Source of the DNA: an uncultured Pseudomonadota bacterium | Lineage (GTDB): Bacteria; Myxococcota_A; UBA796 | Reading direction: 5' to 3' | Length of the DNA: 33,036 nucleotides | Assembly: GCA_937127265.1 (NCBI GenBank) | Contig: CAKZLX010000462.1 | Coordinates: 1 to 33,036 of the forward strand | Translations under genes and position numbers: made by a program | The notes under the pieces: generated by a model | Database searches by the model: none | Seen by the model: only the letters and a program-made list of their open reading frames with translations | Told to the model about the DNA's origin: nothing | In this document: positions 1 through 26,831 of the stretch, one piece after another | Layout: each line of letters begins with the position of its first letter | Position numbering within the stretch: position 1 is the first letter of the stretch

Positions 1-1625
1 TCCATGTGGGCAACCGATAGTCGTGAAATAATACGACCAGCATCCGAAGGAATATTGTCGCGCAACAAATGAGACAAGACATCTTTGTTAACCACGTCAT
101 CGAACAACAAATTGACCGGCTCTGGAATATTACGTTCAATTGTCACTTCACGCCCGTCCGAAACGGCTGGTGCATTGGCGACCATAACCGCATTTAACAT
201 CGTGCAAATTGGATTGGCTTCTGTAGCCACCAACAACTCTTGGGTTGCCGGTTCCAAATCAACGTCCAAAGCAACCACCAAGACCATACGTTGACCACCC
301 GAGGGATCAGGCATACGCAATCGCCAAGCCAAACGATGGTTTAACGGCTCGCGGTTAAACCCTTCCCCTTGATTGGATGCAAATACGCGTATGTCAGGAA
401 TCGAATCTTCACGAACACCTTTGAGTACAAAAGCCATACGGAATGGACCACCTGTGGGCTCAAACTGTCCAACTTCGAGGTGTATAAACTGTTGCTCGGC
501 GCGATCACTGACTACAGACCACAGCCCTTTGTCCAAAATGTCAGATACCCATGTGGGTTCATCCACAATGTCTCCTGTATTCACACCATCGATTCCACGA
601 TTAACAGTTGGTTTCAGAGATGCCAATTTTTGATCCATGTGGGTCAAGGTAATCCAAATCGCTTCCACAATGTTGGTGGGTAACGGTTGAGACTTTCGCT
701 CCAACAATTCTCCAACGGGAATGTTTTCGGGAATTCCAGGTAATAGAATCGTACCACGTCGAGAACCCGGCATCGGAGAACGACCTTTCAAACGAACTGG
801 AATACGAGGATGGTCTTTGACACGAACCGGAGGTGTCCACACGCTATCATCCAAAGTACCCCAACGCCCCTGTACGTCTCCACCCATGGTTAATCCAGTC
901 GGTGTATCTGTCAAGAATGCCTTACCCAAATCAACGCGTGCGAAGACAGAAACAATCTCTGGTGAAGGTTGATCTGTTCGAAAATCCAACCACCCCAACT
1001 GCCGTTTGTCCAGTCCTTCAATCGCAGCATTTAAGGTTTCCAACAAGTCTTCAGCATTGCTGGTAATAATGTCATACCGAATCCACTCACCCTCAAATAT
1101 TTCTGAACGTTTCACATAAGACTGCCAGGCTTCCATACTACCAATGCCATCTTCGCTTTTTGCCATTCCCAATCGATACAGTTCACCATCCACCAGTTTG
1201 GATACGTTCAAAATACGCGAGGGACGCACATGCACTTGCTCTACGGGTGCAAATTCAACCATGTCCATCTCTTCGGTTTGTAGGGTGAAGAAACGCCAAG
1301 GGGCTGGACGATGATCAAATAGTTCCATCTTTCCAGCCTCTGCTGGCTGGGCAATACAAACACCCAATGATGGAACCGATGGTTGCAACTTACCACCCAT
1401 CATATGGACAAACTCTTGCACCATTGAATAAGGATAGAAGTCCAGTTGCTGAGACAACAACTCCACCAACCAAGCTGATTGTTCTAGAATGATCCAGGCT
1501 GGATCGGATGCATCATACTCACTTTCGTCAGCGTAATCAGGAAAACGCTCGGCCAATCGATCTCGAACATCTCGAAGCAAATCATCTTTATCTAACTGTA
1601 ATAGTCCCGGCTGTGGAATCCGCAC
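1..1625 (-). CDS. Baseplate J-like (T4 gp6 / P2 gpJ / Afp11-type) CIS baseplate wedge protein. N-terminal ~541 codons only; the 3' end lies beyond the left window edge.
   Basis: Absent from the supplied ORF track because there is no stop codon in the window. My manual minus-strand translation is open from GTG at 1625 (GGAGG at 1631-1635, 5 nt upstream) down to position 1: VRIPQPGLLQLDKDDLLRDVRDRLAERFPDYADESEYDASDPAWIILEQSAWLVELLSQQLDFYPYS... The DPxWxxLExxAWxxExL N-terminus is typical of the baseplate J family. The gene follows the gp25 gene, as in CIS and myophage baseplate modules. Confidence 0.65.
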   Translation of the reverse strand, partial: MRIPQPGLLQLDKDDLLRDVRDRLAERFPDYADESEYDASDPAWIILEQSAWLVELLSQQLDFYPYSMVQEFVHMMGGKLQPSVPSLGVCIAQPAEAGKMELFDHRPAPWRFFTLQTEEMDMVEFAPVEQVHVRPSRILNVSKLVDGELYRLGMAKSEDGIGSMEAWQSYVKRSEIFEGEWIRYDIITSNAEDLLETLNAAIEGLDKRQLGWLDFRTDQPSPEIVSVFARVDLGKAFLTDTPTGLTMGGDVQGRWGTLDDSVWTPPVRVKDHPRIPVRLKGRSPMPGSRRGTILLPGIPENIPVGELLERKSQPLPTNIVEAIWITLTHMDQKLASLKPTVNRGIDGVNTGDIVDEPTWVSDILDKGLWSVVSDRAEQQFIHLEVGQFEPTGGPFRMAFVLKGVREDSIPDIRVFASNQGEGFNREPLNHRLAWRLRMPDPSGGQRMVLVVALDVDLEPATQELLVATEANPICTMLNAVMVANAPAVSDGREVTIERNIPEPVNLLFDDVVNKDVLSHLLRDNIPSDAGRIISRLSVAHM

Positions 1626-1681
1626 AACCACCTCCCTCAAGTCCAAACTGTGTCTGAGAATACTCTATCTAAACGAGAACT

Positions 1682-1770
1682 GTTCATACCTTACTACAAA
1701 CGAGATAGAATAACACTTCTTTACTATCCGATTGTATATGATCCACCAATATTTCTACTGGTTCATACCT
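1682..1770. repeat. 10-nt direct repeat GTTCATACCT (1682-1691 and 1761-1770) inside the gp25-to-baseplate J spacer
   Basis: Read directly from the sequence. On the minus (mRNA) strand it reads AGGTATGAAC twice, 79 nt apart. Confidence 0.6.
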
Positions 1771-1776
1771 AAAATT

Positions 1777-1812
1777 CTATCGAAACTTCGATCGAAACCC
1801 CGATCGAAACCC
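1777..1812. repeat. Three tandem copies of a 12-mer: CTATCGAAACTT, CGATCGAAACCC, CGATCGAAACCC
   Basis: Read directly from the sequence. Copies 2 and 3 are identical and copy 1 differs at 3 positions. The repeat lies in non-coding DNA between two CIS genes. Confidence 0.8.
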
Positions 1813-1861
1813 CAAGCATCATAAAAAGTTTAGGCAAACACAAAGGTCCGATAACACAAGG

Positions 1862-2296
1862 CTACTCGGCTAAAATGTCAAAGTCGGTACCCACTTCCAT
1901 GACTTCATTCTCGACTTCAATATCCAATTTCAATTCAAGGTTGCTTTCTGTACCCATCGCCACCAAAGCAGATTCCGCCACTGGTATACCGGCTTCTCGA
2001 TGTGTGTTGGCCACACCACCAGCATGCACCAGTTGGACCGAGCAATCATTTACGGTAACATCTGGAAGCCACTCTTGAATGGTTTGCTCCACCAAGGCGC
2101 GGGTTTGTTGGACCCGAGAAGGTGTTGCTGGTTCACCGATCAAGCCCGTCACATCACAACCGAACTCGGGTCGCCAAGGAATATCCCCAACGCGAGAGTG
2201 TAAAACCATGTCTAAACGAGCCAAGGTACTTTCTCGTTGCGACAATAATGGCTGTCGCGCCCCTAATGTTAAAGATGGATGTAAAATACGTTTCAT
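1862..2296 (-). CDS. gp25 / GPW-like baseplate wedge protein (Afp9-type)
   Basis: 144 aa. The motif LARLDMVLHSRVGDIPWRPEFGCDV matches the gp25/GPW signature (xLxTxxGExxxxPxFG). Size and position, between the hub and baseplate J, are canonical. Confidence 0.85.
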   Translation of the reverse strand: MKRILHPSLTLGARQPLLSQRESTLARLDMVLHSRVGDIPWRPEFGCDVTGLIGEPATPSRVQQTRALVEQTIQEWLPDVTVNDCSVQLVHAGGVANTHREAGIPVAESALVAMGTESNLELKLDIEVENEVMEVGTDFDILAE

Positions 2297-2353
2297 TATT
2301 GCATACCAGATAAGTGATGAGAATGATGTTGGATTTCCTACAAGGATGATTGT

Positions 2354-3397
2354 TTAGGGTTTTGGTAAGGAGTTTGATTTAAAAGTAATCTCAGTACGCA
2401 ATCCATCAAAGGCAAATTCGTGCACCACTTTGGTAATGATAAACTTACCTTCAAACGGATAGCCCGCTCCTTTGATAGAGAGTTCATTTCCAACACTGGT
2501 GGCATGGGCCCCACGAGCAATCACCACACCTTCCACAAAGTCAAGTGCCGCCACATCCAATTCCGATTGGGCTTTGGCTTTGGCTTGAGATTGATTTTTG
2601 TACATCGGAGAATCATATCCTCCAATCGTCAAGGATTTTACTCCGAAAGCCTTCTTTCCGATCGCAGAGCCCAACTTACCACCAGAGTTGATTGCCTTAG
2701 GATCCTTTTTGTAGGTAACTTTGGTCTGCTTGGTACCATCTTTTTCAGGGTCACCCCAAAAGACGTGTACTTCATTGACGTGATCTTTGAGGTTGGCTGT
2801 GAGACGGATACTGACCACATCGTCACGGTAAGATAGTTTCAATTTCCCTTTGGTCAAATCACGACGACCAAAATGCAACTCTTTACCAACGACTCGGCAA
2901 TAGTAATTGTGTTCTCGAGCAAGACGCATCAAGAACAAGGCATCGGTTTCCCCTTGTTGAAAGGTAAAATCTGCCGTGGTGCTAACCCCTTGCACTTTGG
3001 CACTCAAAGAGGGCTTGGCTCGACCAGCAATCGTTTTCACAATTTTGTCGTGTGATTCTTCCCATACTTGGGTGTAATGCTTAGAACGTAGTCGGTGTAA
3101 ATAGTTCAAACCAACCAAGGTGACCGACCACTTTGAGCCTTTCTTCTCATGGTTCACTGCGACGATATCCCCTTCACGTTTTCCAAGAACTTTTCCTTTG
3201 TCATCCAACAGTTCCACGGTAAAAGGCAATCCAGGCTCCATTAACGGTTTCAAATCTTTTTCTTTATTTGACGGAACCGAAAATGTGGCAGTCAAACCAT
3301 CCAACTCACCGACTGCTTCAGTGTAGGTAATCCGCGTCATGTAGAAGTTTATGGTATCTTTTCCCTTCACTTTCAATGATAAAGCACCTTTGCGCAT
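2354..3397 (-). CDS. Phage late control D (gpD) / gp27-like baseplate hub. Equivalent to the Afp8/VgrG N-terminal part, with no gp5-like needle domain evident.
   Basis: 347 aa. The central segment ...IVKTIAGRAKPSLSAKVQGVSTTADFTFQQGETDALFLMRLAREHNYYCRVVGKELHFGRR resembles the gpD/VgrG core (Q-x-ESD-xxFLxRLA). The C-terminal segment GNELSIKGAGYPFEGKFIITKVVHEF is gpD-like. Confidence 0.8.
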   Translation of the reverse strand: MRKGALSLKVKGKDTINFYMTRITYTEAVGELDGLTATFSVPSNKEKDLKPLMEPGLPFTVELLDDKGKVLGKREGDIVAVNHEKKGSKWSVTLVGLNYLHRLRSKHYTQVWEESHDKIVKTIAGRAKPSLSAKVQGVSTTADFTFQQGETDALFLMRLAREHNYYCRVVGKELHFGRRDLTKGKLKLSYRDDVVSIRLTANLKDHVNEVHVFWGDPEKDGTKQTKVTYKKDPKAINSGGKLGSAIGKKAFGVKSLTIGGYDSPMYKNQSQAKAKAQSELDVAALDFVEGVVIARGAHATSVGNELSIKGAGYPFEGKFIITKVVHEFAFDGLRTEITFKSNSLPKP

Positions 3398-3496
3398 TCG
3401 CGTACCCTCTGTAAACTAATGGTTATCTGAATATTTTTGCAGACAAGATATCTCGACACTCGATAAAACAAATGTCCTGAAAACAACTTCGATAGA

Positions 3497-4171
3497 TTAT
3501 CCGATTTCAGTGGTCGTACTGGCCTTAGATTCCCCTTGACCAAACAACAAGTCTTCTGGCTTCTTATTGTACTCACCATAGACACCAATCAATCCCAAAC
3601 TAACCTCGGCTCTTTTTGGTGTGCCATCTGAATCAAACAAGATGATTTTGAATGAGAACTTTTCAATCGCACCACTGAACTTGATTTCTTCACCCCATGT
3701 AAATTGTACCAAACGTGGGTAAATTACTGCAGCAGCGTCTTTTTTCTTCTTCTTTCGATCATCGTCTGACAATTTGGTCATCATGTTAATCACTTCCAAA
3801 ACTTCTGTGACCGAATCCGGATTCACAGCACCACCAAAATAGGGTACCCCCTTGGCTGATTTGGCTGGATCCATCGCTGGTGTACTCATGATAATCGGTT
3901 GCATCATAACTTTTGAATAACTGGAATCAGACAAACTAGGTTCCGAAGTATCCAAGATAAATGACATGCTCAGTTCATCCGATTTTGCTCCACCAAACTT
4001 CAAACCACCATAATCATTCACCGAGTTGGAATCAGAGTTTTCAGAACTGAAACCACATCCGCGGGTCACTTCAAGTTCGGTTGGATTAAAGGGAAAGGTC
4101 ACTTCACAATTTGGCTTTTTCTTGTCAAAGGTGAGCAATACTGCTTTTTCTAAATTCGATCTTGGATACAT
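3497..4171 (-). CDS. CIS tube-initiator / baseplate tube protein (Afp7/Pvc7-type, T4 gp48/54 analogue), without a LysM domain
   Basis: 224 aa. The N-terminus KAVLLTFDKKKPNCEVTFPFNPTELEVTR and the C-terminus PRLVQFTWGEEIKFSGAIEKFSFKIILFDSDGTPKRAEVSLGL match the pattern I recall for Afp7-like proteins (FxFNPxxl ... vxFxWG ... FxxdGxPxRAxv). It sits between the tube-like gene and the hub. Confidence 0.65.
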   Translation of the reverse strand: MYPRSNLEKAVLLTFDKKKPNCEVTFPFNPTELEVTRGCGFSSENSDSNSVNDYGGLKFGGAKSDELSMSFILDTSEPSLSDSSYSKVMMQPIIMSTPAMDPAKSAKGVPYFGGAVNPDSVTEVLEVINMMTKLSDDDRKKKKKDAAAVIYPRLVQFTWGEEIKFSGAIEKFSFKIILFDSDGTPKRAEVSLGLIGVYGEYNKKPEDLLFGQGESKASTTTEIG

Positions 4172-4190
4172 CGTGTTTAATCCTCACTAC

Positions 4191-4691
4191 TTAGGTTGCG
4201 ACCATGAACATACCTTCATGGACCAGTGTAACTGACTCTGTGGCTAAATCATTTCCGTTAGAATCCAAGTCTGATGCTTTCCACTGCTTCGGCCAAGCAC
4301 CATAAAGACCAATAATACGATACGGCACATCACTGCGTTTATAGTGAGTGATAAATACGTGACGACGGAAGGGCAAACCAGGTCCAATTGAATGAATCCA
4401 TGCTTCCATTTTGTCACGTCGTACAGAACCCCATTCCAAAGTCACTTCACCCGCTGTTGCCGGTCCATCGAACGGGCGATAATGAGGAGACATATTTCGT
4501 CCACCTTCTTTGATTTGATAGGGTGTAACCGAGTACTCAATGCCACTCACTTTGGTAAAGAAACCAAATGTATCTCCACCGATCATCACACTGAACAAAT
4601 TGTTTGCTTGAGGCTGATTCAATTCATCAAACGGATTACTCAGTAGTGACTCTGCTTCACTTTGTGCTTTATTCAAGTCTAATGATGCCAT
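4191..4691 (-). CDS. T4 gp19-family tail tube protein, second paralog (Afp5-type)
   Basis: 166 aa. The motifs FSVMIGGDTFGFFTKVSGIEYSVTPYQIKEGGRN...GEVTLEWG...YGAWPKQWKASDLDS...ESVTLVHEG follow the gp19-like tube signature. Confidence 0.85.
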   Translation of the reverse strand: MASLDLNKAQSEAESLLSNPFDELNQPQANNLFSVMIGGDTFGFFTKVSGIEYSVTPYQIKEGGRNMSPHYRPFDGPATAGEVTLEWGSVRRDKMEAWIHSIGPGLPFRRHVFITHYKRSDVPYRIIGLYGAWPKQWKASDLDSNGNDLATESVTLVHEGMFMVAT

Positions 4692-4729
4692 TGCTTACTC
4701 CACATGTTTATTGCCAGAATCCTGAATAA

Positions 4730-5998
4730 TTAGGATTGATTTTCAATCACAGGATCCTCTCCTGATCTTACCATAACTTTTAGGCTTATGTTTTGACACC
4801 ATGGTCTGACCATCGCCGATAGATTTACACTGAGCATTGGTTGGGTATGACTAGGAAGTGCCTCTCCTATGACAGAAGGTCTCCCTTTACCCTCAGCACC
4901 CACCAAGATCCCTCGTTCATAAAACGGATTCAATACCATTTCCACTGTTTTTTCCAAGGCTACTGCTTCCACTTTCTTCACCGGTCGAAACACAAACATA
5001 TCTGCTGCTTGCCGTAATGACTGGTGGATCGCCTTCACAGTTCGAATCACAGGGATACTCCATTCATATCTTGGACGACGCAAGGTGTATTCAGAGGTCA
5101 CTTGGGCCTTCCTACCACGACTATCAATCGATAACACCGCACAATTATCTGAAAGCATATCTGCATAAGGTAACGGCCCTGAAGAGGTTAACAACCGTGC
5201 GCGATTGGCAATAATCTTACGACCACCCACCAAGGGGATCTCGTGCCCCACCAATGACTGGGTGACTACATCGACCCGTTTATTGATGTACCCAGCCAAG
5301 AAAGCCGAACCACAGCGCCATCCGTGCTTAAACATCCCATCCATATCACCCGTCCAAGAACACAAAGCGATATCGTACCCCTGAATGTTGTTAAGGGTGT
5401 GAATGATATCTTGTGGTGCATCTGGTACCATGTCCATGAAGCCTAACTGAAAATTCTCGGCAAATAAAGGGCCATAGGTTTGAATACAGTCCATTAAATT
5501 ACGCGACTGATCAGGATGCAACATTCGTTCGCGATCCAAAGACCATGCTCGTGCCCATGGACCACCAGCGTCTGGAAACACAATCATCGCACCTGGAATC
5601 TCACTGAAGAACCCCATCAACATCTCGACAACCGATTGATTGGTTAATTCAGCGGAATACACACCGGGCACCCGAACCAATATACAATCGACTTCATTAC
5701 ACCCCATTTCCAAGATACTGGTCACAGAATCCTTGAGACGGGAGGGATGATTTGCATCAATACCAGGTAGTAAAGAAGCTTGGGCGATTGATGTTAGACG
5801 AACTTGCTCCACAAAAGGATCTCGACCGTTCCAATTTGAACGACGAATTAAAGCCCCCGGTGACAGTTCAGAAATAATCGGTGAGGCAAAAGGAACAACA
5901 CCCACGACACACAAACGTGGAAGTGATTGCTTTGAGGACTGCGGACGAGCCAAACTAACTTCGATACTGACTCGTTTTTGTAAAGGATTGTTATTCAT
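4730..5998 (-). CDS. Divergent sheath-like paralog (Afp3/Afp4-like?), otherwise hypothetical
   Basis: 422 aa. The C-terminal segment EWSIPVIRTVKAIHQSLRQAADMFVFRPVKKVEAVALEKTVEMVLNPFYERGILVG aligns by eye with the bona fide sheath C-terminus in this window, WNYVNVRRLFLFVERSVRDSVNWAVFQPNNNQTRENLKNSIAAFLFRCYNEGMLDG. The N-terminus lacks the PGVYxEE motif. Confidence 0.45.
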   Translation of the reverse strand: MNNNPLQKRVSIEVSLARPQSSKQSLPRLCVVGVVPFASPIISELSPGALIRRSNWNGRDPFVEQVRLTSIAQASLLPGIDANHPSRLKDSVTSILEMGCNEVDCILVRVPGVYSAELTNQSVVEMLMGFFSEIPGAMIVFPDAGGPWARAWSLDRERMLHPDQSRNLMDCIQTYGPLFAENFQLGFMDMVPDAPQDIIHTLNNIQGYDIALCSWTGDMDGMFKHGWRCGSAFLAGYINKRVDVVTQSLVGHEIPLVGGRKIIANRARLLTSSGPLPYADMLSDNCAVLSIDSRGRKAQVTSEYTLRRPRYEWSIPVIRTVKAIHQSLRQAADMFVFRPVKKVEAVALEKTVEMVLNPFYERGILVGAEGKGRPSVIGEALPSHTQPMLSVNLSAMVRPWCQNISLKVMVRSGEDPVIENQS

Positions 5999-6014
5999 TC
6001 AAGATTACTCACTG

Positions 6015-6176
6015 TTATTTCATGGCTTCAAGGATCTTTTTATTGATCTTGCTCACCTGGCCTACCCACTCTACACGCTCTTTGTGCGGTAGTTCCAAGA
6101 TTTCATGAAGACTCCAATGCATATGGTATGCCAAAAATGCGGTTTCTTCACGAACTCTTGGAAGCGGATAGGCCAC
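6015..6176 (-). CDS. Small ORF in the -1 frame of the chaperone gene. It is either a stand-alone 53-aa protein starting at GTG 6176, or the E'-like extension of a frameshifted chaperone.
   Basis: Below the size cutoff of the ORF track. Translation: VAYPLPRVREETAFLAYHMHWSLHEILELPHKERVEWVGQVSKINKKILEAMK, stop at 6015-6017. From memory it resembles the small proteins (annotated DUF6760, if I recall correctly) that follow 'phage tail assembly protein' genes in CIS loci. This is not verified. Confidence 0.5.
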   Translation of the reverse strand: MAYPLPRVREETAFLAYHMHWSLHEILELPHKERVEWVGQVSKINKKILEAMK

Positions 6177-6178
6177 CG

Positions 6179-6718
6179 TTACCCCCCCGGACCGGGTTCC
6201 TCCTCAGGGAGATTTTCTTCGCCATAGGTCAAACGATAGACGGCGTATTCCAAAGCACGAACATCCAAGGCGTGCATTTTACCCACATCGTTCACAGTTA
6301 CATTTTTGTGTGGACCAATGCGCGTGACAGTACGAGACAATAACAACGTACGGTATACCAGATCGTTTGGATGCCGATTGTATTGAGAAGACTGACCAAT
6401 AAATAACTCATCGGCGCCAGTAACCGCACGCACTTCGGCCTCACGTGCCAATTCACCATTGGGCAATTCAAAGCCGACTGGCAATTGAATTAATTCGCGA
6501 TGACTGGTTCGAGCTGGTCCACCACCTTGCCAAGTCGGAGAATAGGCTTCAGGTGTCGGACTACCTGCCGTCGGAGAGGGCGGAGCACTCATCGAAGGGG
6601 CTGGATTAGTAGACGGAGGGGCAGATGGTGCACCAACGGATGGCGGTGCTACCGGAGGAGGCGCCTGAGGAACACTACCACCAGTTGGAGGTGGAATATC
6701 AGGTGTTTTTGAACTCAT
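6179..6718 (-). CDS. Phage tail assembly chaperone-like protein (P2 gpE-like) with a proline-rich N-terminal extension
   Basis: 179 aa. The C-terminal half LIQLPVGFELPNGELAREAEVRAVTGADELFIGQ...LLLSRTVTRIGP...NDVGKMHALDVRALEYAVYRLTY resembles gpE-type tail assembly proteins. The first ~65 aa are rich in Pro, Ser and Ala. Confidence 0.55.
   Translation of the reverse strand: MSSKTPDIPPPTGGSVPQAPPPVAPPSVGAPSAPPSTNPAPSMSAPPSPTAGSPTPEAYSPTWQGGGPARTSHRELIQLPVGFELPNGELAREAEVRAVTGADELFIGQSSQYNRHPNDLVYRTLLLSRTVTRIGPHKNVTVNDVGKMHALDVRALEYAVYRLTYGEENLPEEEPGPGG
6182..6188 (-). promoter_or_regulatory. Candidate -1 programmed frameshift site: G GGG GGG heptamer immediately before the TAA stop of the chaperone gene
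   Basis: The plus strand shows seven consecutive C at 6182-6188. On the coding strand this reads CCG GGG GGG TAA. The -1 frame is open from this run for 55 further codons, to the stop at 6015. Confidence 0.4.
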
Positions 6719-6810
6719 AGAGTATCCTTTTGTTTCTTCATCATGAAATACATCTGTCCGATGGACATGGTCTAATGTATTCCCTATTTACTTCACTGAC
6801 AATTACAACA

Positions 6811-6889
6811 GAAGGATGACCACCAAAAAAGACAGTCACCCTTCCACATGTTAGGAATCGTTGCAATGTTAACTGAATATTATTGCAAC
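6811..6889 (-). promoter_or_regulatory. Two stem-loops in the tube-to-chaperone intercistronic spacer (possible attenuator or mRNA-stabilising structures)
   Basis: Hairpin A: arms at 6860-6867 and 6882-6889 (GTTGCAAT/ATTGCAAC), 8 bp perfect, 14-nt loop. Hairpin B: arms at 6811-6820 and 6835-6844, 10 bp. One position is an A-C mismatch on the plus strand but a G-U pair on the minus-sense RNA, which favours function in the CIS transcript. Confidence 0.35.
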
Positions 6890-6913
6890 ACTCCTAGTAC
6901 CATCATGCGTTGA

Positions 6914-7363
6914 TTAAGCGCCTTGAGTTACGTGAGAGCAAGTCAAAGTAATGGTTTCAACAGCGGCTTCTGAAGAAGATGCATCCATTGGAGGCAATTC
7001 CCATTTTGAAGGATATGCATCGTGGATAGACATTGTGCGGATTACAGTTTCCATATCTGGAAGAAGCAAAGAAACAGTGACAAGTTTACGCTCGATTTTT
7101 CCACGCTCGATTTGCTCACGCCATGCATAGAAAGAGTCTACTTGTTGGTAAACACGTTTTAATTCGATATCTTCGAACATTGCGCGACCTGGTTGCTTCA
7201 TTACGAAACGGTCATCACCATGCATGAATTCCATTGTTTCAGAAGTTGATACAACACCTGATACAGAAACGAATTTTGAGTTTTCGACTTCGATTCCGTC
7301 GATTGTTACTTTGAAGTTAAATGCGCCGATATAATTATCAAGGCCAAACTGAGGAGCACCCAT
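6914..7363 (-). CDS. CIS inner tube protein (T4 gp19 family, Afp1/Pvc1-type)
   Basis: 149 aa. The motifs GAFNFKVTIDGIEVENSKFVSVSGVVSTSETMEFMHGDD...DAYPSKWELPPMDASSSEAAVETITLTCSHV match the classic tube signature. GGAG lies 8 nt upstream of the ATG. The gene sits directly downstream of the sheath gene. Confidence 0.9.
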   Translation of the reverse strand: MGAPQFGLDNYIGAFNFKVTIDGIEVENSKFVSVSGVVSTSETMEFMHGDDRFVMKQPGRAMFEDIELKRVYQQVDSFYAWREQIERGKIERKLVTVSLLLPDMETVIRTMSIHDAYPSKWELPPMDASSSEAAVETITLTCSHVTQGA

Positions 7364-7442
7364 TGTATTTCTCCGGGTTATTTTGTTGAAGTTTTTTAAA
7401 GTTGAAGTTGAAGTAATGTATTTAAATAGCCCAATCGCTTTG

Positions 7443-7476
7443 TTAGGATCCTAAGACCATCCCGAAACTTTCGGAA
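7443..7476 (-). promoter_or_regulatory. Perfect 12-nt palindrome TTAGGATCCTAA (7443-7454) plus a 7-bp hairpin (7460-7476) in the sheath-to-tube spacer
   Basis: Read directly from the sequence. The hairpin on the minus-sense RNA is UUCCGAA-AGU-UUCGGGA, which includes one G-U pair. Confidence 0.3.
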
Positions 7477-7508
7477 CCATTCAAACACACTACTAGTATA
7501 GCAGATTA

Positions 7509-9404
7509 TTAACCTACTTGCATTGGAGTTTGTGAGAAACGGATTCGGACAAACTCTGCTGGGAAGACTGGACGGATTTGAACGTCAACAGTGAGCAATC
7601 CAGAGCGAATGTCTGCTTCAGGGTTGTTCTCTTTGTCACATTGTACAGTGAAAGAGTCTTGCCATGAATCACCGTCCAACATTCCTTCGTTGTAGCAACG
7701 GAACAAGAATGCGGCGATTGAGTTCTTGAGGTTCTCACGAGTTTGGTTGTTGTTTGGTTGGAATACAGCCCAGTTGACAGAGTCACGAACTGAACGCTCA
7801 ACAAACAAGAACAAACGACGAACGTTGACGTAGTTCCACAATGCATCAGCGGCAACAGTACGAGCACCCCAAATACGGATACCAGCACCAGGACGATGAC
7901 GAATAATGTTGATCCCTTTGACGTTCAATGAAGCTTGCTCGCGATCGGATACAGAAGTAACCAATTCGGCGACACCCAATACAGGCTCATTGGCAGGTGC
8001 TTTATGTACACCACCACCAGCTTTAGTGTCAGTACCAGCGATCACACCAGCAACGAAACCAGCAGGAGGAGCAACGATGTACTTATCACTTGGACCAGTA
8101 GACAATGGATTGTCAACGATCAACCATGGTGAGTAAACAGCACCGTGACCTTTGTCATCACGTGGAGTACAACGATCCAATACGATATCAGCAGCAAAGC
8201 CTAAGAAACGCAATTCCTTTGAAGATGGCTCAGCCAACACTTGCATTTCACGTACTTCGTATGAACCACCAGCTTTTAACCAGCGAGTTTCAGTCACTTC
8301 AACACCGCGAGGAGGCTTAGTCATCAAGTAACGAGGGGCTTCAAGAACAGCAAAGAGGTCACCACGTCCAGCAGGACCAGCATATTCAAGAATCGCTTGT
8401 TGCCAACCGAACTCCAAACCAGGAGCACACAACATAGCGACAGCAGAGGCACCATCATATGCTTTTTCAAGGAAGGCACGTTTTGCAGGTCCACCAGTTC
8501 CTTCAGCTTGCAAGGCAACAGCAGGGAAAGCAGTAGCACCACCGTTTGAGAAGAAACCGACCAAAGACAGTTCCAAACGACGCATACCGGGATGAGTACG
8601 AACCCAGTTCAACCAAGCGTTTTGAGCAGATGCATCCAAAGAATCCCACATGATCTCAGCTTTTGATGGTGTCATCTTCTTGTCGCCTTCCAACAAGATT
8701 TGAACGAACAAGTTTGCAGACCATTCTGTACGCCATGCGTGGAAACCGTCCATTGAAGAAAATGAAGGAGCAGTTCCGTGCATACGTTCATGGATTGCAT
8801 CAACATCGACAGTGATTGGCTTTTGGGTTTTATCAACACAGCCAAGTTCACCAGTGTGAGCAACGCCTTGTTCTTCAGCGTGTGCTGCAATCAATTCCAT
8901 TACTTTGTTTGAAGCTTCAGAGAAACTCAAGTCCCATTCTGCTTTTGAAGAAGCGTCAACTGTGACACTCATCAATGCGCGAGATACAGGAAAACGAAGC
9001 ATTTCACCTTTGGCAGATGACATGGTAACTTTACTATCACCAGTTGGAGATTTCACATCCCACTGACCAGGAAGTACTTCAGATACCAACTGTTGGAATT
9101 CATTTCCAGCAACGGCAGGCTTGTCATCCTTTTTACCTTTCGACTTTTTATCATCTTTGCTTGCGGCAGGAGCATCGCTAGCAGGCGCCAAACGACGGAA
9201 GGCACGTGCACGATTCCAATACATGTGAACGTCTTCAGTAGAGCCAGGCAAGTACATGTTAGATGCACCACCGCCACCAGGGACGAATTGGGTTGGGATT
9301 TCAATAACGGCTACAAAGCCTGTTTCAGTTGTTGAAGAAGCCTGTACTGGACGTGGTCCATTTGAGATCTCTTCAATGTAAACACCAGGAGTACGGTAGT
9401 TCAT
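7509..9404 (-). CDS. Contractile tail sheath protein (Afp2/Pvc2/TssC-like fold family), 631 aa
   Basis: The N-terminus MNYRTPGVYIEEISNG is the canonical sheath start. It also has the FFSNGG motif and the C-terminal segment GINIIRHRPGAGIRIWGARTV...WNYVNVRRLFLFVERSV. I place the start at ATG 9404 (GGAG 8 nt upstream) rather than at the TTG at 9416 used by the ORF track. Confidence 0.92.
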   Translation of the reverse strand: MNYRTPGVYIEEISNGPRPVQASSTTETGFVAVIEIPTQFVPGGGGASNMYLPGSTEDVHMYWNRARAFRRLAPASDAPAASKDDKKSKGKKDDKPAVAGNEFQQLVSEVLPGQWDVKSPTGDSKVTMSSAKGEMLRFPVSRALMSVTVDASSKAEWDLSFSEASNKVMELIAAHAEEQGVAHTGELGCVDKTQKPITVDVDAIHERMHGTAPSFSSMDGFHAWRTEWSANLFVQILLEGDKKMTPSKAEIMWDSLDASAQNAWLNWVRTHPGMRRLELSLVGFFSNGGATAFPAVALQAEGTGGPAKRAFLEKAYDGASAVAMLCAPGLEFGWQQAILEYAGPAGRGDLFAVLEAPRYLMTKPPRGVEVTETRWLKAGGSYEVREMQVLAEPSSKELRFLGFAADIVLDRCTPRDDKGHGAVYSPWLIVDNPLSTGPSDKYIVAPPAGFVAGVIAGTDTKAGGGVHKAPANEPVLGVAELVTSVSDREQASLNVKGINIIRHRPGAGIRIWGARTVAADALWNYVNVRRLFLFVERSVRDSVNWAVFQPNNNQTRENLKNSIAAFLFRCYNEGMLDGDSWQDSFTVQCDKENNPEADIRSGLLTVDVQIRPVFPAEFVRIRFSQTPMQVG

Positions 9405-9877
9405 AGTTTTCTCCAAAATTTAGAGCGTGAGTTGTTGATTGAGAATTGTGTCGATGGATTCGAACGTTCAAAGGGTGGGTGAATGACCATTGTGCCTCCG
9501 ACCACTTTCTGGGACAATACATGTCGCATTGGACCCATCGAGCGTTGTGTCGTTAGAGCAATCAAAGGATATCGAACCCCTCTTTGACCTTGTAATACAT
9601 CTTGTTGCTTGCGCAATTGTTTTTTTGAATGAGCATCTGGAGAAAGCCATTTATCAGAACCCAACTTTCGCACCAATGGTTTGAACATGGGTGTTAACAA
9701 TGGAATTTCATCAGATTGCATAAAGACTATCACAGAATTGAAGTTGTCAATACATTGAAGACGAAAAAAATTTTCATCAACGTTCTTTTTTAACACTTTT
9801 TTGGTATCAAAGCACATAAAAACAATCCGAAGACCTCTTTGACATTTTGTCATTACACTTGTAAGACCCATTGTCAA
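9401..9877 (-). CDS. Doubtful 158-codon ORF filling the CIS leader; no recognisable domain
   Basis: The start is a TTG and the first ATG is at 9871; neither has a Shine-Dalgarno sequence. The stop TGA overlaps the sheath ATG (ATGA at 9401-9404). An internal ATG at 9490, preceded by GGAGG (9495-9499), would give a 29-aa peptide ending at the same ATGA. The 158-codon ORF may be a real small gene or a chance ORF in a leader; the 29-aa internal frame could alternatively act as a uORF. Confidence 0.2.
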   Translation of the reverse strand: MTMGLTSVMTKCQRGLRIVFMCFDTKKVLKKNVDENFFRLQCIDNFNSVIVFMQSDEIPLLTPMFKPLVRKLGSDKWLSPDAHSKKQLRKQQDVLQGQRGVRYPLIALTTQRSMGPMRHVLSQKVVGGTMVIHPPFERSNPSTQFSINNSRSKFWRKL

Positions 9878-9884
9878 AATGACA
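9840..9884. promoter_or_regulatory. Pair of 13-nt palindromes, TGACAtttTGTCA (9840-9852) and TGTCAaaaTGACA (9872-9884), centres 32 nt apart. Candidate activator/operator (UAS) sites.
   Basis: Read directly from the sequence. Each site has perfect 5-nt inverted arms with a 3-nt spacer. They lie 62 and 94 nt upstream of the -24 element of the sigma-54-like promoter. Confidence 0.45.
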
Positions 9885-9938
9885 TCCCTACTAGTTAACG
9901 CTCTATAAAAATGGGTACTATACGATCATTTTAGTAAC

Positions 9939-9954
9939 TGGCATGAATATTGCT
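9939..9954 (+). promoter_or_regulatory. Sigma-54 (RpoN) type -24/-12 promoter upstream of gspC
   Basis: TGGCATgaataTTGCT matches the TGGCAC-N5-TTGCW consensus at 10 of 11 specified positions, with the exact GG-N10-GC spacing. The predicted start of transcription is about 55 nt upstream of the gspC ATG. Confidence 0.55.
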
Positions 9955-10018
9955 AATAAGGTATATGATAGAACTATATTAACGTTTTACTTTCTCGAAT
10001 TTTTTACTTTGGTTTTGT

Positions 10019-26459: not shown

Positions 26460-26831
26460 ATGTTTTTCTCTATTCTTTTCTACCAAACCCAATGGGCACT
26501 AGCAACTGAAAATGATGGTGCTGTCTTGATTCGGCTTGGTGGAGAAGTAATCCAAGAAAGCCAACAACAAAGCGTCATCCCCATACCACCACCCAAACCG
26601 ATCACCTTGGACTTATTGCAAACGGATATTGCTGAGATTGTACGTATATTTGCTATGCACAGTGGTCAAAACATTTTGCTAGCCGATGGAGTTCAAGGAA
26701 CCGTCAGCGTACGGGTCACCAACGTGCCATGGACCGATGCCCTAAATGCCATCGTCCAAAGTAACGGATGGGCACTACTACCTGTTGGAGAGATTCTGAT
26801 GGTTGTGCAGCAAACACCTACCTCCAAATAA
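26460..26831 (+). CDS. Small secreted protein consisting essentially of one secretin N0 (PilQ/GspD N-terminal, STN-like) domain
   Basis: 123 aa. The segment ITLDLLQTDIAEIVRIFAMHSGQNILLADGVQGTVSVRVTNVPWTDALNAIVQSNGWALLPVGEILMV matches the N0 pattern (dvlrxlaxxxgxNivvxxxvxGxVtlxlxnvpwxxALdxiL). AAGGA Shine-Dalgarno sequence upstream. Confidence 0.5.
   Translation: MFFSILFYQTQWALATENDGAVLIRLGGEVIQESQQQSVIPIPPPKPITLDLLQTDIAEIVRIFAMHSGQNILLADGVQGTVSVRVTNVPWTDALNAIVQSNGWALLPVGEILMVVQQTPTSK

Follow-up and report, generated by a model that had tools for sequence, protein, structure and literature searches.

Ten co-directional genes at the left end of this contig encode parts of a contractile nanomachine, and they raise two questions. 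Do they belong to a prophage or to a contractile injection system (CIS) that the host chromosome has made its own? And, if the latter, from where does a machine missing so many familiar parts fire? The window, meaning the whole stretch of DNA analysed, is 33,036 nucleotides long. We are highly confident that the locus is a functional, domesticated CIS. Where it fires from is a more delicate matter.

The operon and its surroundings

All ten ORFs of the preliminary description are present, on the minus strand between positions 1 and 9404, and its by-eye assignments were borne out by profile searches, alignment or structure prediction. Its operon was incomplete, however: an eleventh co-directional gene, g138, shares 4 bp with the beginning of the sheath gene, and the operon reaches ~7–10 kb further left, beyond position 1 (locus L001, same contig). 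Positions 1–9817 of the minus strand are the first two-thirds of a chromosomal CIS operon of ~17–20 kb. From right to left, its features are:

9401..9817 (likelier start 9721), minus strand: g138, immediately ahead of the sheath gene; small, conserved ORF
7509..9404, minus strand: main sheath (Cis2-type), 631 aa; Pfam Phage_sheath_1 1.6e-11, Phage_sheath_1C 8.3e-11; PHROG_23 tail sheath 1.2e-45
6914..7363, minus strand: inner tube (Cis1-type), 149 aa; Phage_T4_gp19 3e-27, TIGR02241 1.1e-22; CIS1_fam and CIS5_fam weak
6179..6718, minus strand: tail-assembly chaperone, P2 gpE/Mu gp41 type, 179 aa; from alignment with orthologues and canonical-locus homologues
6182..6188, minus strand: G7 run, candidate -1 slippery site, G GGG GGG in the chaperone frame
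6015..6176, minus strand: DUF6760 ORF, 53 aa, -1 frame with respect to the chaperone gene; PF20546 8.5e-12
4730..5998, minus strand: p422, 422 aa, predicted second sheath-fold protein; AlphaFold2 model and Foldseek
4191..4691, minus strand: second tube-fold protein (Cis5/Cis1b-type adaptor, initiator-tube), 166 aa; Phage_T4_gp19 5.9e-23, CIS5_fam 1.2e-10
3497..4171, minus strand: tube initiator (Cis7/Afp7-type), 224 aa; CIS_tube PF19266 1.2e-15
2354..3397, minus strand: baseplate hub (gpD/gp27-like, N-terminal part of Cis8/VgrG), 347 aa; Phage_GPD 8.6e-06, VgrG_rel 8.3e-18, PHROG_52 6e-23
1862..2296, minus strand: gp25/Cis9 sheath-initiating wedge protein, 144 aa; GPW_gp25 4.2e-06, PHROG_43 baseplate wedge 2.6e-10
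3..1625, minus strand: Cis11 (gp6/baseplate-J-like) wedge, N-terminal 541 aa of an ORF cut by the window edge; TIGR02243 weak

Profile searches upheld sheath and tube directly. The gp25 match lies just under the GPW_gp25 cut-off (26.9 bits versus 27.2), and a lineage HMM for this protein matches 44 canonical gp25 genes. Baseplate J (Cis11) was recognized through TIGR02243, 'baseplate assembly protein' (1.4e-4 for the cut ORF, 1.7e-10 for the full 826-aa protein in L001), and through a lineage HMM that matches 37 canonical Cis11 genes; it starts with GTG at 1625, with GGAGG ahead. The Phage_GPD score of the hub is below the Pfam cut-off, and NCBIfam VgrG_rel and PHROG_52 corroborate the assignment. 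The hub is without an OB-fold or needle domain, and the six-frame translation of the window contains no match to needle or PAAR HMMs. The second tube gene immediately precedes that of Cis7, an arrangement shared with canonical loci, and the Cis7 lineage HMM matches 53 canonical-locus ORFs.

Gene calls on three independent contigs include the newcomer, g138, whose stop codon shares bases with the ATG of the sheath (ATGA). The gene probably encodes 106 aa from the ATG at 9721, which corresponds to Met33 in the 138-aa version, a residue nearly invariant among the 66 clusters (50% identity; typical length 80–110 aa) found among 1.84 billion representatives. Orthologues occur in 16 lineage loci, and dN/dS is 0.24 (versus L007). 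Confidence in its AF2 model is confined to a helical hairpin, residues 84–106. Identification as a PAAR, Pvc16 or DUF4157 protein was rejected after family searches.

To the right, as the preliminary description had it, lies a complete gspC-L type II secretion (T2SS) operon, followed by housekeeping genes. To the left, in L001, Cis11 is completed and is followed by three genes that we call p286, p288 and p628, and by one for a giant secreted repeat protein. No tRNA and no Rfam match turned up in the window. The early observation that the 33 kb lack capsid, portal, terminase, lysis, integrase and replication genes extends 8 kb to the left: these ~41 kb contain none of them, no other head gene and no att site. 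The T2SS operon adjoins the locus also in relatives whose p422 orthologue is 44–56% identical and whose sheath, where measured, is ~71–93% identical, and the persistence of this adjacency despite such divergence argues for vertical chromosomal inheritance. Head, terminase, integrase and lysis genes being absent and the neighbourhood being kept, the locus is best read as a domesticated CIS, not a prophage, as originally proposed.

Sheaths, chaperone and the lineage

The main sheath is distinctive in that an insertion of ~380 aa separates its N-terminal PGVYIEE strand from the conserved C-terminal domains. Among solved structures it is closest to Halogeometricum borinquense Cis2 (9ezm, 5.4e-56), with Streptomyces Cis2 next (8bky, 1.8e-48; 8bl4); CIS sheaths match it far better than that of pyocin does (3.4e-07). 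The lineage is monophyletic, on a long branch, when sheath C-terminal domains are compared in a neighbour-joining tree, and it has been seen so far only in uncultured Myxococcota MAGs. IMG/VR holds no member (best match, 42% over the C-terminal third), and no sequenced phage covers at least 80% of the sheath (best, 36%).

No family in Pfam, NCBIfam, PHROG or PDB sequence searches accommodates p422, and it was structure prediction alone that confirmed this protein as the sheath-like paralog suspected by eye. Its AlphaFold2 model (pLDDT 85.6, pTM 0.85) draws sheath proteins as all of its top 39 Foldseek matches in the PDB, the first being Pvc4 (6j0n_V, E 9e-10, prob 1.0), and hhalign matches it, weakly but in the corresponding register, to the C-terminal domain of the sheath. 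It has 41 homologues and is absent from all canonical CIS loci compared. On the strength of the model, p422 appears to be a lineage-specific sheath-fold protein consisting of the core domains only, without the insertion, and it probably forms a single specialised sheath ring, in the manner of Afp4/Pvc4.

Alone, the 179-aa chaperone has no direct family match. When it is aligned with orthologues and canonical-locus homologues, Pfam Gp41_Mu is found in 11 of the 22 members and Phage_TAC_7 in six, and canonical loci yield 25 homologues to the lineage HMM, in the corresponding place. An N-terminal extension of ~65 aa, rich in Pro, Ala and Ser, is specific to the marine clade. The G7 run directly precedes the TAA stop (6179–6181), and slippage there would join the chaperone to DUF6760, the small ORF that had been remarked upon for its -1 frame and that occupies this frame in 31 of 32 loci. 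A G-run of at least five within the last 15 nt of the chaperone occurs in 23 of the 32, among them archaeal and acidobacterial loci with no start codon before the conserved DUF6760 motif. Either the ORF extends the chaperone by frameshifting (gpE'/GT-like), or it is a small protein of its own whose translation is coupled, and at 62–72% identity across the lineage it is the operon's most conserved product.

Five genes with estimable dS are under purifying selection, dN/dS ranging from 0.01 to 0.24 (0.011 for the inner tube, 0.039 for DUF6760). One 14-gene order is kept in at least 15 lineage loci at 25–70% identity, and in L087–L090 as well; within the marine clade gene order is kept at 44–93% identity. 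Between close relatives, the middle cassette (p422, the second tube and Cis7) has diverged to an unusual degree. The same lineage has very probably appeared already, as 'PLTS/eCIS-like', in a metatranscriptome paper of 2025. Its kind was reported there coarsely; the set of parts at the present locus is unusually stripped-down and rearranged.

Missing parts and the genes to the left

Nowhere in the ~41 kb is there a Pvc16/DUF4255 cap, a tape measure, an AAA+ ATPase, a PAAR protein, a fibre or a DUF4157 effector. Canonical loci served as a positive control: they carry Pvc16_N cap genes upstream of the sheath (a 42-member family, of which the four members tested all match Pvc16_N, at 9e-5 to 6e-32), eCIS_core (DUF4157) proteins, PAAR after the needle, and a variable protein of 250–1200 aa in the tape-measure slot. 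With the same tools, none of these families was detected in the lineage. A gpV/gp5-type needle gene does lie directly upstream of g138 in the more distant lineage loci whose upstream region was recovered, 13 from L011–L025 plus L088, but at the locus it is absent in every member of the T2SS-adjacent marine clade, which could signify reduced function.

The missing parts had been expected to lie to the left, to lie elsewhere, or to have been replaced. The first expectation fails, as L001 is without them. Either lineage-specific proteins fill their places or the parts are encoded elsewhere in the genome, as cap, ATPase, spike and PAAR may be. Both p286 (286 aa) and p288 (288 aa) are conserved and without family assignment, save for one weak profile match of p286 to Cis12 (E 0.014). 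The 628-aa p628 has four membrane helices with a basic segment after them; its Cys4 motif and its soluble domains are conserved, the soluble part (~450 aa) being cytoplasm-sized. It is the last structural gene in every lineage locus that extends that far. No HMM match connects it with CisA-type or Hbor_38620-type anchors in canonical loci, one haloarchaeal locus included, and it could just as well act in release, like a holin, or in immunity, or be a neighbour with no part in the system. The giant repeat protein downstream, conserved in lineage loci, carries a Sec or lipoprotein signal and so would be exported on its own, not built into a cytoplasmic particle. Any of p286, p288 and the giant protein could be a divergent fibre, wedge protein or cap. 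Peculiar to this lineage, then, are the sheath paralog, the set of missing parts, the terminal membrane protein with its giant surface protein, and, in the marine clade, the spikeless locus.

Where the machine might fire

So stripped-down and rearranged a set of parts suggests firing from the cell membrane, not as a free particle, and we put the chances of such a membrane-docked mode at about even. Hub, Cis7 and adaptor tube would seed the tube, assisted by the chaperone pair; gp25 and p422 would make up the initial ring of the sheath, and the main sheath would polymerise upon it. The wedge (gp25, Cis11 and perhaps p286/p288) would dock onto the cytoplasmic domain of p628, so that the particle is kept inside the cell to fire at the envelope or through it, instead of being released as a fibre-targeted free particle. 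Spike and cargo would be supplied from elsewhere in the genome, and the giant surface protein may serve to grip the target cell.

A classical extracellular CIS of the Afp/PVC/AlgoCIS kind, assembled in the cytoplasm, released by lysis, and injecting toxin after receptor binding, is a real, if lesser, possibility. It would have its missing parts elsewhere and p286, p288 or the giant protein as a divergent fibre. The core genes are those of the eCIS/PLTS set (TIGR02241, TIGR02243, CIS_tube, DUF6760), a sheath with several paralogs is otherwise an Afp/PVC trait, unassigned proteins sit at the fibre position, and this is how Myxococcota clusters have been interpreted (PMC11937823). Against it, the ~41 kb contain none of the parts that our tools find so readily in canonical loci, and no lysis cassette; the gene at the fibre position encodes a polytopic membrane protein, and the giant protein is exported separately.

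Less likely is a self-directed CIS like that of Streptomyces, in which stress leads a membrane protein to recruit free cytoplasmic particles, which fire into the producer's own membrane and bring about regulated cell death or a developmental switch, not prey attack. The sheath is close to Streptomyces Cis2, and CIS-Sc/CisA likewise has a membrane-protein gene immediately behind those for the baseplate and lacks both fibre and tape measure (PMC12237407). But the Streptomyces CIS has a Cis16 cap, a Cis15 ATPase and a fixed length (PMC12237407), and the locus has neither gene; p628 is polytopic and shows no detectable relationship to CisA, which is bitopic. The conserved giant surface protein after the anchor gene, and very high expression in planktonic predatory taxa (PMC11937823), better fit a weapon pointed outward.

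That the locus is a decaying remnant, left without a working injector by loss of the spike and other parts, and since co-opted or not yet purged, we consider very unlikely. The needle gene of distant loci is gone throughout the marine clade, and the middle cassette diverges unusually; the ORFs, however, are all intact on several independent assemblies, selection is purifying, and gene order is kept. T6SS spike genes, moreover, commonly lie apart from the main cluster. For clusters of the present kind, the gp19 tube gene is reported as the top-expressed gene in marine Myxococcota MAGs in situ (PMC11937823). A myovirus prophage tail module or R-type tailocin, though its P2/Mu order of sheath, tube, chaperone (-1 frameshift), hub, gp25 and J is mirrored here, is scarcely credible for a lineage missing from IMG/VR and sequenced phages, in a stable chromosomal neighbourhood, with no head, packaging, integrase, replication or lysis gene, no tRNA or att site, no tape measure or fibre, and a sheath so far from that of pyocin.

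Set beside known systems, the locus is partly ordinary. Of the differences from Afp/PVC first listed, the sheath paralog stands as lineage-specific, and p422 echoes the multi-paralog sheaths that are otherwise a trait of those eCIS; sheath before tube, a hub split from its needle, and chaperone with DUF6760 are all normal in the class-II CIS loci compared, instead. The membrane-docked mode we propose would have two analogues, both without a tape-measure gene, as here. One is the membrane-bound, T6SS-like CIS of haloarchaea, which supplies the closest solved sheath (PMC11566945). The other is the CIS of Streptomyces, which, where conventional eCIS encode fibres, encodes the membrane adaptor CisA, at the position equivalent to that of p628 (PMC12237407).

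Genes of the contractile core

The left end of the window carries, on the minus strand between 1 and 9404, ten ORFs that all run in the same direction and that overlap or are separated by short gaps. With g138, the small ORF upstream of the sheath gene, they are as follows.

Genes of the contractile injection system (CIS) operon, from right to left, with profile matches
9401–9817, minus: g138
7509–9404, minus: sheath, 631 aa; Pfam Phage_sheath_1 and Phage_sheath_1C; PHROG tail sheath 1.2e-45
6914–7363, minus: tube; Phage_T4_gp19 3e-27
6179–6718, minus: 179-aa protein, putative tail-assembly chaperone
6015–6176, minus: DUF6760 ORF, 53 aa; DUF6760 8.5e-12
4730–5998, minus: p422, 422-aa protein of sheath fold
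4191–4691, minus: second tube (tube2); Phage_T4_gp19 5.9e-23
3497–4171, minus: tube initiator Cis7; CIS_tube PF19266 1.2e-15
2354–3397, minus: hub; Phage_GPD under the Pfam cut-off; VgrG_rel 8.3e-18; PHROG_52 6e-23
1862–2296, minus: gp25; 0.3 bit short of the Pfam cut-off; PHROG_43 (wedge) 2.6e-10
3–1625, minus: Cis11, ORF cut by the window edge; weak match to TIGR02243 ('baseplate assembly protein'), 1.7e-10 for the full-length protein of the extended contig

The preliminary description had seen here a CIS operon, domesticated rather than part of a myovirus. The observation is confirmed, the interpretation is supported by profile searches, a structure model and the flanks, and nearly all of the gene assignments (sheath, tubes, initiator, hub, gp25, Cis11) are upheld by profile searches. 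Both Pfam sheath domains score above cut-off, and so do both Phage_T4_gp19 proteins and the CIS_tube protein; PDB matches of the sheath extend from 9ezm (5.4e-56) down to T4 gp18. The CIS baseplate core is present, with a gpD/gp27-like hub and gp25-like and gp6/J-like wedge proteins, and the HMM of the Cis11 proteins of this lineage matches 37 Cis11 genes of canonical loci, i.e. of the other class-II CIS loci fetched in the same sheath scan. The gap between gp25 and Cis11 (1626–1861) is, at 236 bp, long for this operon; in relatives it spans 10–40 bp. It contains no ORF, and at about 1783–1818 (minus) it holds three tandem 12-nt units, GGGGTTTCGATC, GGGGTTTCGATC and GAAGTTTCGATA.

The protein p422 has no direct match in Pfam, NCBIfam or PHROG profile searches. 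Its position suggests a tape measure, for p422 and then the adaptor tube fill the slot where canonical loci have a variable, tape-measure-like protein of 250–1200 aa, but this identity was rejected: p422 folds as a sheath protein and is not similar to the canonical-slot proteins. It has 41 database homologues, 37 of which went into an AlphaFold2 model (pLDDT 85.6, pTM 0.85). The first 39 Foldseek matches of this model in the PDB are all sheath proteins, Pvc4 being the best (6j0n_V, E 9e-10) and the pyocin sheath, Streptomyces Cis2 and the Afp/PVC sheaths following. Because of this, and because a weak profile match lies in register with the sheath C-terminal domain, the preliminary description was right to call p422 a sheath-like paralog. 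Afp4/Pvc4 forms a specialised sheath ring adjoining gp25 and, by analogy, p422 might form such a ring next to gp25, too.

The 179-aa protein matches no family directly in profile searches, and a PDB profile search with it returned no match. It is conserved over its ~115 C-terminal residues, however, and 25 canonical CIS loci encode a homologue in the corresponding place; when members of the family are scanned singly, Gp41_Mu is matched by 11 of 22 and Phage_TAC_7 by six of 22. This evidence is weak but consistent, and it makes the protein a likely tail-assembly chaperone of the P2 gpE/Mu gp41 type. In the marine clade—the part of the lineage, window included, whose CIS operon adjoins a Type II secretion system (T2SS)—the chaperone has a Pro/Ala/Ser-rich N-terminal extension of ~65 aa (window 6524–6718, minus) that is probably disordered. 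The chaperones of distant lineage members and of canonical loci are 114–131 aa long and have no such extension.

The small DUF6760 ORF that follows lies in the -1 frame with respect to the chaperone in 31 of the 32 loci that have both, and in 23 of the 32 the chaperone ORF has a run of at least five Gs among its final 15 nt. In the window the junction (6176–6190, minus) contains CCG GGG GGG TAA (G7 at 6182–6188, stop codon at 6179–6181) and includes an in-phase G GGG GGG heptamer; a GTG at 6176–6174 is a possible independent start for DUF6760. L086 and L070 (both Thermoanaerobaculia), L051 (Pyrinomonadaceae) and L046 (cyanobacterial) have no start codon before the DUF6760 motif. Junctions of this kind, with the -1 frame and the G-run, span CIS loci of Myxococcota, Acidobacteriota, Cyanobacteria, Actinomycetota and Methanothrix. 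Tailed phages make frameshifted chaperone pairs, G/GT in lambda and E/E' in P2, in which a -1 extension lies behind a slippery run. Judged from sequence, the chaperone–DUF6760 layout is that of these phage pairs and, since some loci lack any possible DUF6760 start codon, it is an indication of programmed -1 frameshifting conserved among domesticated CIS. The G/GT-type frameshift of phages seems to have been retained in such systems, bacterial and archaeal alike; in that case the Pfam family DUF6760 would acquire a function. No prior description was found in the literature on DUF6760 or on frameshifting in CIS chaperones.

At the right edge of the operon, g138 ends in an ATGA overlap with the start of the sheath gene. 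It is called on independent contigs, has orthologues in 16 loci of the lineage, and forms 66 clusters among 1.84 billion representatives, mostly of 80–110 aa; its dN/dS of 0.24 indicates purifying selection. As Met33 is nearly invariant, translation probably begins at 9721. From 65 sequences AlphaFold2 gives a poor model (pLDDT 62.7) that is confident in a helical hairpin only. In relatives g138 follows the needle gene, and a PAAR tip was considered and rejected (hhalign against canonical-locus PAAR, E 0.25); nor does g138 match DUF4157.

Beyond g138 lies a T2SS operon, gspC-D-E-F-G-(H/I)-J-K-L, and then MoaC, transglycosylase, TetR, glutaredoxin-rhodanese, prolyl oligopeptidase and CheB genes. 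Positions 9939–9954 (plus), which lie some 65 bp before gspC in the divergent intergenic region, read TGGCATGAATATTGCT, one mismatch away from the sigma-54 consensus; the count of this pattern window-wide is that of chance. Two relatives, L008 and L010, have a sigma-54 activator gene between the T2SS and CIS operons. Between 1 and 10100, sigma-70 promoters and terminators are no more frequent than in shuffled sequence, terminators being below expectation (3 versus 9.1), and Rfam, tRNA and PADLOC scans found nothing. Some 13 kb from gspD, adjoining a TetR regulator, a free-standing 123-aa protein with a secretin N0/STN-like domain is encoded at 26460–26831 (plus).

The lineage and the parts it lacks

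Scanning one genome per species with the sheath alignment finds full-length relatives (54–93% identity) in MAGs only, and those that are meaningfully labelled are Myxococcota; the remaining matches are confined to the sheath's C-terminal third. A neighbour-joining tree of the sheath C-terminal domain places the window and L007–L025 together in one long-branched clade. Throughout this clade, at 25–70% identity, the order of 14 genes is conserved: g138-sheath-tube-chaperone-DUF6760-p422-tube2-Cis7-hub-gp25-Cis11-p286-p288-p628. Four more loci, reached via p422 homologues, have the same order. HMMs of five of these proteins (g138, p422, p286, p288 and p628) have no match across 61 canonical loci. 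IMG/VR contains no member of the lineage, its best match being 42% over the sheath's C-terminal third; nor do 50,697 phage records, among which the best match reaches 36% and no record covers 80% of the sheath. The marine sub-clade, window included, always has the T2SS operon beside the CIS operon.

Divergence from the closest species-level relative, L007, is mosaic. From g138 through DUF6760 the proteins are 67–99% identical (sheath, first tube and DUF6760, 94–99%) with dS of ~0.4–0.65 (chaperone, 1.7), and the hub is 93% identical, but p422, tube2 and Cis7 (window 3497–5998 versus L007 13433–15942) are only 78–89% identical, with dS saturated. The sequences suggest either recombination of this middle cassette or faster evolution. 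Elsewhere in the lineage the tube genes vary: L019, L021, L023, L025 and L088 have two main tube genes in tandem, and tube2, 166 aa in the window, is enlarged by insertions to 260–375 aa in L011, L015–L017, L021, L025 and L088.

Canonical class-II loci run Pvc16 cap-sheath-tube-chaperone-DUF6760-(tube)-variable 250–1200-aa protein-Cis7-hub-needle-PAAR-gp25-Cis11-Cis12, with eCIS_core (DUF4157) proteins upstream. The preliminary description had called the content of the operon non-canonical, and this holds in part. Sheath before tube, a hub unfused to a needle and a chaperone pair are normal, because canonical class-II loci show them as standard; they differ from Afp/PVC only. The sheath paralog and the absences, on the other hand, are specific to the lineage. 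We find in it no cap, tape measure, ATPase, PAAR, fibre or DUF4157 protein, all of which the same methods detect in control loci. For the cap, the control is a 42-member family upstream of canonical sheaths, four of which, tested by Pfam, match Pvc16_N at 9e-5 to 5.9e-32; no lineage protein matches the Pvc16 cap by Pfam or hhalign, and the proposal that g138, p286, p288 or p628 is a divergent version of it was rejected (hhalign E 0.2–0.9). No gene of the cluster matches AAA or PAAR in Pfam or NCBIfam, and an HMM of canonical-locus PAAR proteins finds nothing in the window.

The HMM of the needle, or spike, has no match in the six-frame translated window or in L001–L010, L001 being the window's own contig extended to the left of position 1. 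Distant members of the lineage do have a spike gene (Phage_base_V 7.6e-14 to 1.7e-16), relocated to the start of the operon, immediately ahead of g138, in 13 of L011–L025—those that reach upstream of the sheath—and in L088. It encodes 220–240 aa, Phage_base_V followed by a gp5 C-terminal beta-helix. From this locus the gene is absent throughout the marine clade: in the window (9818–10018), L007–L010, L087, L089 and L090.

To the left of position 1, L001 supplies the remainder of Cis11 (826 aa whole) and then p286 and p288, two proteins of 286 and 288 aa without a family. Profile searches of the PDB with p286, p288 and p628 found nothing; p286 against canonical Cis12 gave a marginal hhalign E of 0.014 over 125 columns, and no gp7/Cis12-like wedge partner was identified. 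p288 (L001 14017–14883) is among the most conserved products of the operon, 46–51% identical where the hub, Cis7 and p422 are 25–35% identical, and has invariant motifs that include GPPGTxRP and AEPEGxVWxRxVLGxxWxRYQT; it, too, lacks any sequence match in the PDB. The products of the genes after Cis11 match no fibre family, though a very divergent fibre among them is possible, and the last of them, p628 (628 aa), is predicted to be a membrane protein with four transmembrane (4-TM) segments. Besides its four hydrophobic segments it has an acidic linker, a Cys4 motif that is conserved, and ~450 aa of conserved soluble sequence. Run on the 61 canonical loci as a test for homology to known anchors (Hbor_38620, CisA), its HMM matches nothing, the haloarchaeal locus L035 and actinobacterial loci being among those covered.

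In L001 a large lipoprotein with Ig-like repeats begins 196 bp past p628 and is cut by the end of the locus. Every locus that extends far enough has a giant secreted repeat protein next after p628 (5976 aa in L087, 2619 in L088, 1635 in L090, more than 1150 in L001), and its start overlaps the end of p628 in two loci. These genes begin at 19892, 20613 and 20223 in L087, L088 and L090, and occupy 16969–20435 in L001 (~4.7–8.1 kb left of window position 1). Their products carry a signal of lipoprotein or Sec type and repeats of the Ig-like, Big_3 or MopE-like kind, and their N-termini cannot be aligned across clades. Because of the signal, they are not cargo of the tube. That the operon closes with p286, p288, p628 and a giant surface protein is a further trait specific to the lineage.

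Mode of action

The ORFs of the operon are intact on several assemblies, dN/dS is 0.01–0.24 where it can be computed, gene order and context are conserved and expression of the tube gene has been reported. For these reasons we consider it highly probable that the locus encodes a functional, domesticated CIS. How the particle acts we infer from its parts. A conserved 4-TM protein closes the structural operon, a gene-level proxy for membrane anchoring by the baseplate of the kind that marks T6SS-iv, thylakoid CIS and the haloarchaeal T6SS, and it stands where, after the baseplate genes, conventional eCIS have fibres and Streptomyces has CisA (PMC12237407). Membrane docking is favoured by this position; by the nearest solved sheaths, which belong to a membrane-bound haloarchaeal CIS (9ezm, PMC11566945) and to the cytoplasmic CIS of Streptomyces, both without a tape-measure gene; and by the lack of the fibre, ruler, cap and ATPase that are typical of released particles. 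We put the chances of a membrane-docked rather than an extracellular particle at about even. If docked, the particle would stay in the cell, attached to the inner membrane through p628. The giant exported protein may serve as an adhesin, and the spike and cargo would have to be encoded elsewhere in the genome.

A more novel proposal is possible but, as a whole, doubtful: that the lineage represents a distinct, minimal class of CIS, a membrane-anchored, single-shot, contact-dependent weapon of marine predatory Myxococcota. It would dispense with ruler, cap and recycling ATPase, and would include a first-ring sheath paralog, a polytopic inner-membrane dock, a giant adhesin to hold the prey, and exchangeable spike-plus-cargo modules encoded off the operon. 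It would amount to an independent, T6SS-like solution that arose in a Gram-negative bacterium out of a class-II phage-tail CIS. Traits of canonical T6SS i–iii, with their two-protein TssB/TssC sheath, Hcp tube, TssJLM membrane complex and ClpV, were not found: the sheath is a single phage-type chain, the tubes are of the gp19 type rather than Hcp, and no Tss family is matched apart from a weak VgrG fragment (TIGR03361 0.0011).

The main rival is a conventional eCIS whose missing parts are elsewhere in the genome. The published reading of Myxococcota clusters (PMC11937823) and the possession of several sheaths both favour it, and it is a real possibility, though less likely than membrane docking. 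A self-directed system like that of Streptomyces is possible but less probable still. CIS-Sc of Streptomyces coelicolor resembles the window locus in having no tail fibre or tape-measure gene and in encoding a membrane protein right after the baseplate genes, but this protein, CisA, is bitopic and has a periplasmic-binding-like domain (PMC12237407), whereas p628 is a 4-TM protein with a large soluble part. That the operon is a degenerate remnant is very improbable given the selection on it and its expression. A prophage or tailocin is essentially excluded: no capsid, portal, terminase, integrase, lysis or replication gene, and no tape measure or fibres of the myovirus or R-type tailocin kind, were found in the 33-kb window, as the preliminary description had maintained, or in the 8 kb to its left.

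CIS are currently classified by mode of action, as released particles, membrane-anchored guns or intracellular suicide devices, and each newly characterised lineage has altered the picture. They are also under engineering as tools for protein delivery. The part list of this lineage is the shortest among the CIS loci examined and, if the system works as proposed, it would show which parts an injector can spare, and reveal a second bacterial route from phage tail to T6SS-like weapon. The lineage is abundant in the ocean, and one metatranscriptome report places its tube gene among the top-expressed genes of uncultured predatory Myxococcota; if so, it likely matters for bacterial predation and for carbon turnover in seawater. 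And p422, g138, p286, p288 and p628 constitute new, unannotated protein families.

Comparison with known systems

The tail modules of P2 and Mu (gpFI-FII-E/E'-T-...-D, V-W-J-I) share with the window the order sheath-tube-chaperone, the -1 chaperone extension, and a hub, gpD, separate from the spike, gpV. Unlike them, the window has no tape measure after the chaperone, and no fibre, head or lysis genes. Against any sequenced phage the window sheath is 25–36% identical, in the C-terminal third only.

In Afp and PVC (Afp1–18) the sheath genes come after the tube gene and the spike, a fused VgrG, is tipped by PAAR; Afp, in addition, has the Afp13 fibre, Afp14 tape measure, Afp15 ATPase, Afp16 cap and toxin genes. 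None of this layout and none of these parts was found at the window locus. Shared with these systems (Serratia, 6RAO; Photorhabdus, 6J0N) are the sheath, the gp19 tubes, the Afp7-type initiator, and the gp25 and gp6-like wedge folds. They are the only well-studied CIS with several sheath paralogs and Pvc4 is p422's best structural match, but their sheaths are less similar to that of the window (Afp3 1.9e-33, Pvc2 6e-31).

The closest solved sheath by sequence is Cis2 of the Halogeometricum borinquense CIS (clade IIa, 9EZM, 5.4e-56). Like the window, this system lacks genes for a tape measure (cis14), a plug (cis6) and a crown (cis19); unlike the window locus, it has a Cis16 cap, Cis15 ATPase, spike, PAAR, Cis12 and Cis13, and a single sheath protein (PMC11566945). 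It, too, has a membrane protein, but one with six TM segments, encoded upstream, with a cytoplasmic domain of only ~150 residues (PMC11566945), and p628 has no detectable homology in haloarchaeal L035. CIS-Sc (type IId; 8BKY, 8BL4, 9GTP; PMC12237407) has the second-closest sheath, and shares the class-II layout sheath-tube-small proteins-...-Cis7-Cis8-Cis9-Cis11. It differs from the window locus in having a Cis16 cap, a Cis15 ATPase, Cis12, a spike, DUF4157-type effectors and a single sheath protein (PMC12237407).

CIS as a kind are known, and this lineage has very probably been noticed already, as an 'eCIS-like' cluster. PLTS/eCIS-like clusters were reported in marine Myxococcota MAGs, mostly of class UBA796, from the Zhenbei seamount (ISME Commun 2025, PMC11937823), with the gp19 tube gene as the top transcript of those MAGs. 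That report labels the cluster eCIS by analogy with Afp/PVC, and notes the cluster and the high transcription of its tube gene only; as far as its available text goes, it does not describe a second sheath paralog, the lack of so many parts (spike included), the membrane protein or the frameshift junction. Nor did we find the part list described elsewhere in the literature, or the second sheath protein, the parts that are lacking, the membrane and giant proteins that end the operon, the marine clade without a spike, or the conserved -1 junction. The reported clusters very probably belong to the same lineage as the window. Like it, they come from uncultured marine Myxococcota and have a sheath and a gp19 tube without other phage genes. 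L009 (DS_MAG67) is from the same MAG series as DS_MAG26, which that report cites. On the contig described there, two called genes separate gp19 genes _11 and _14, which is the spacing of the window's two tubes when DUF6760 goes uncalled.
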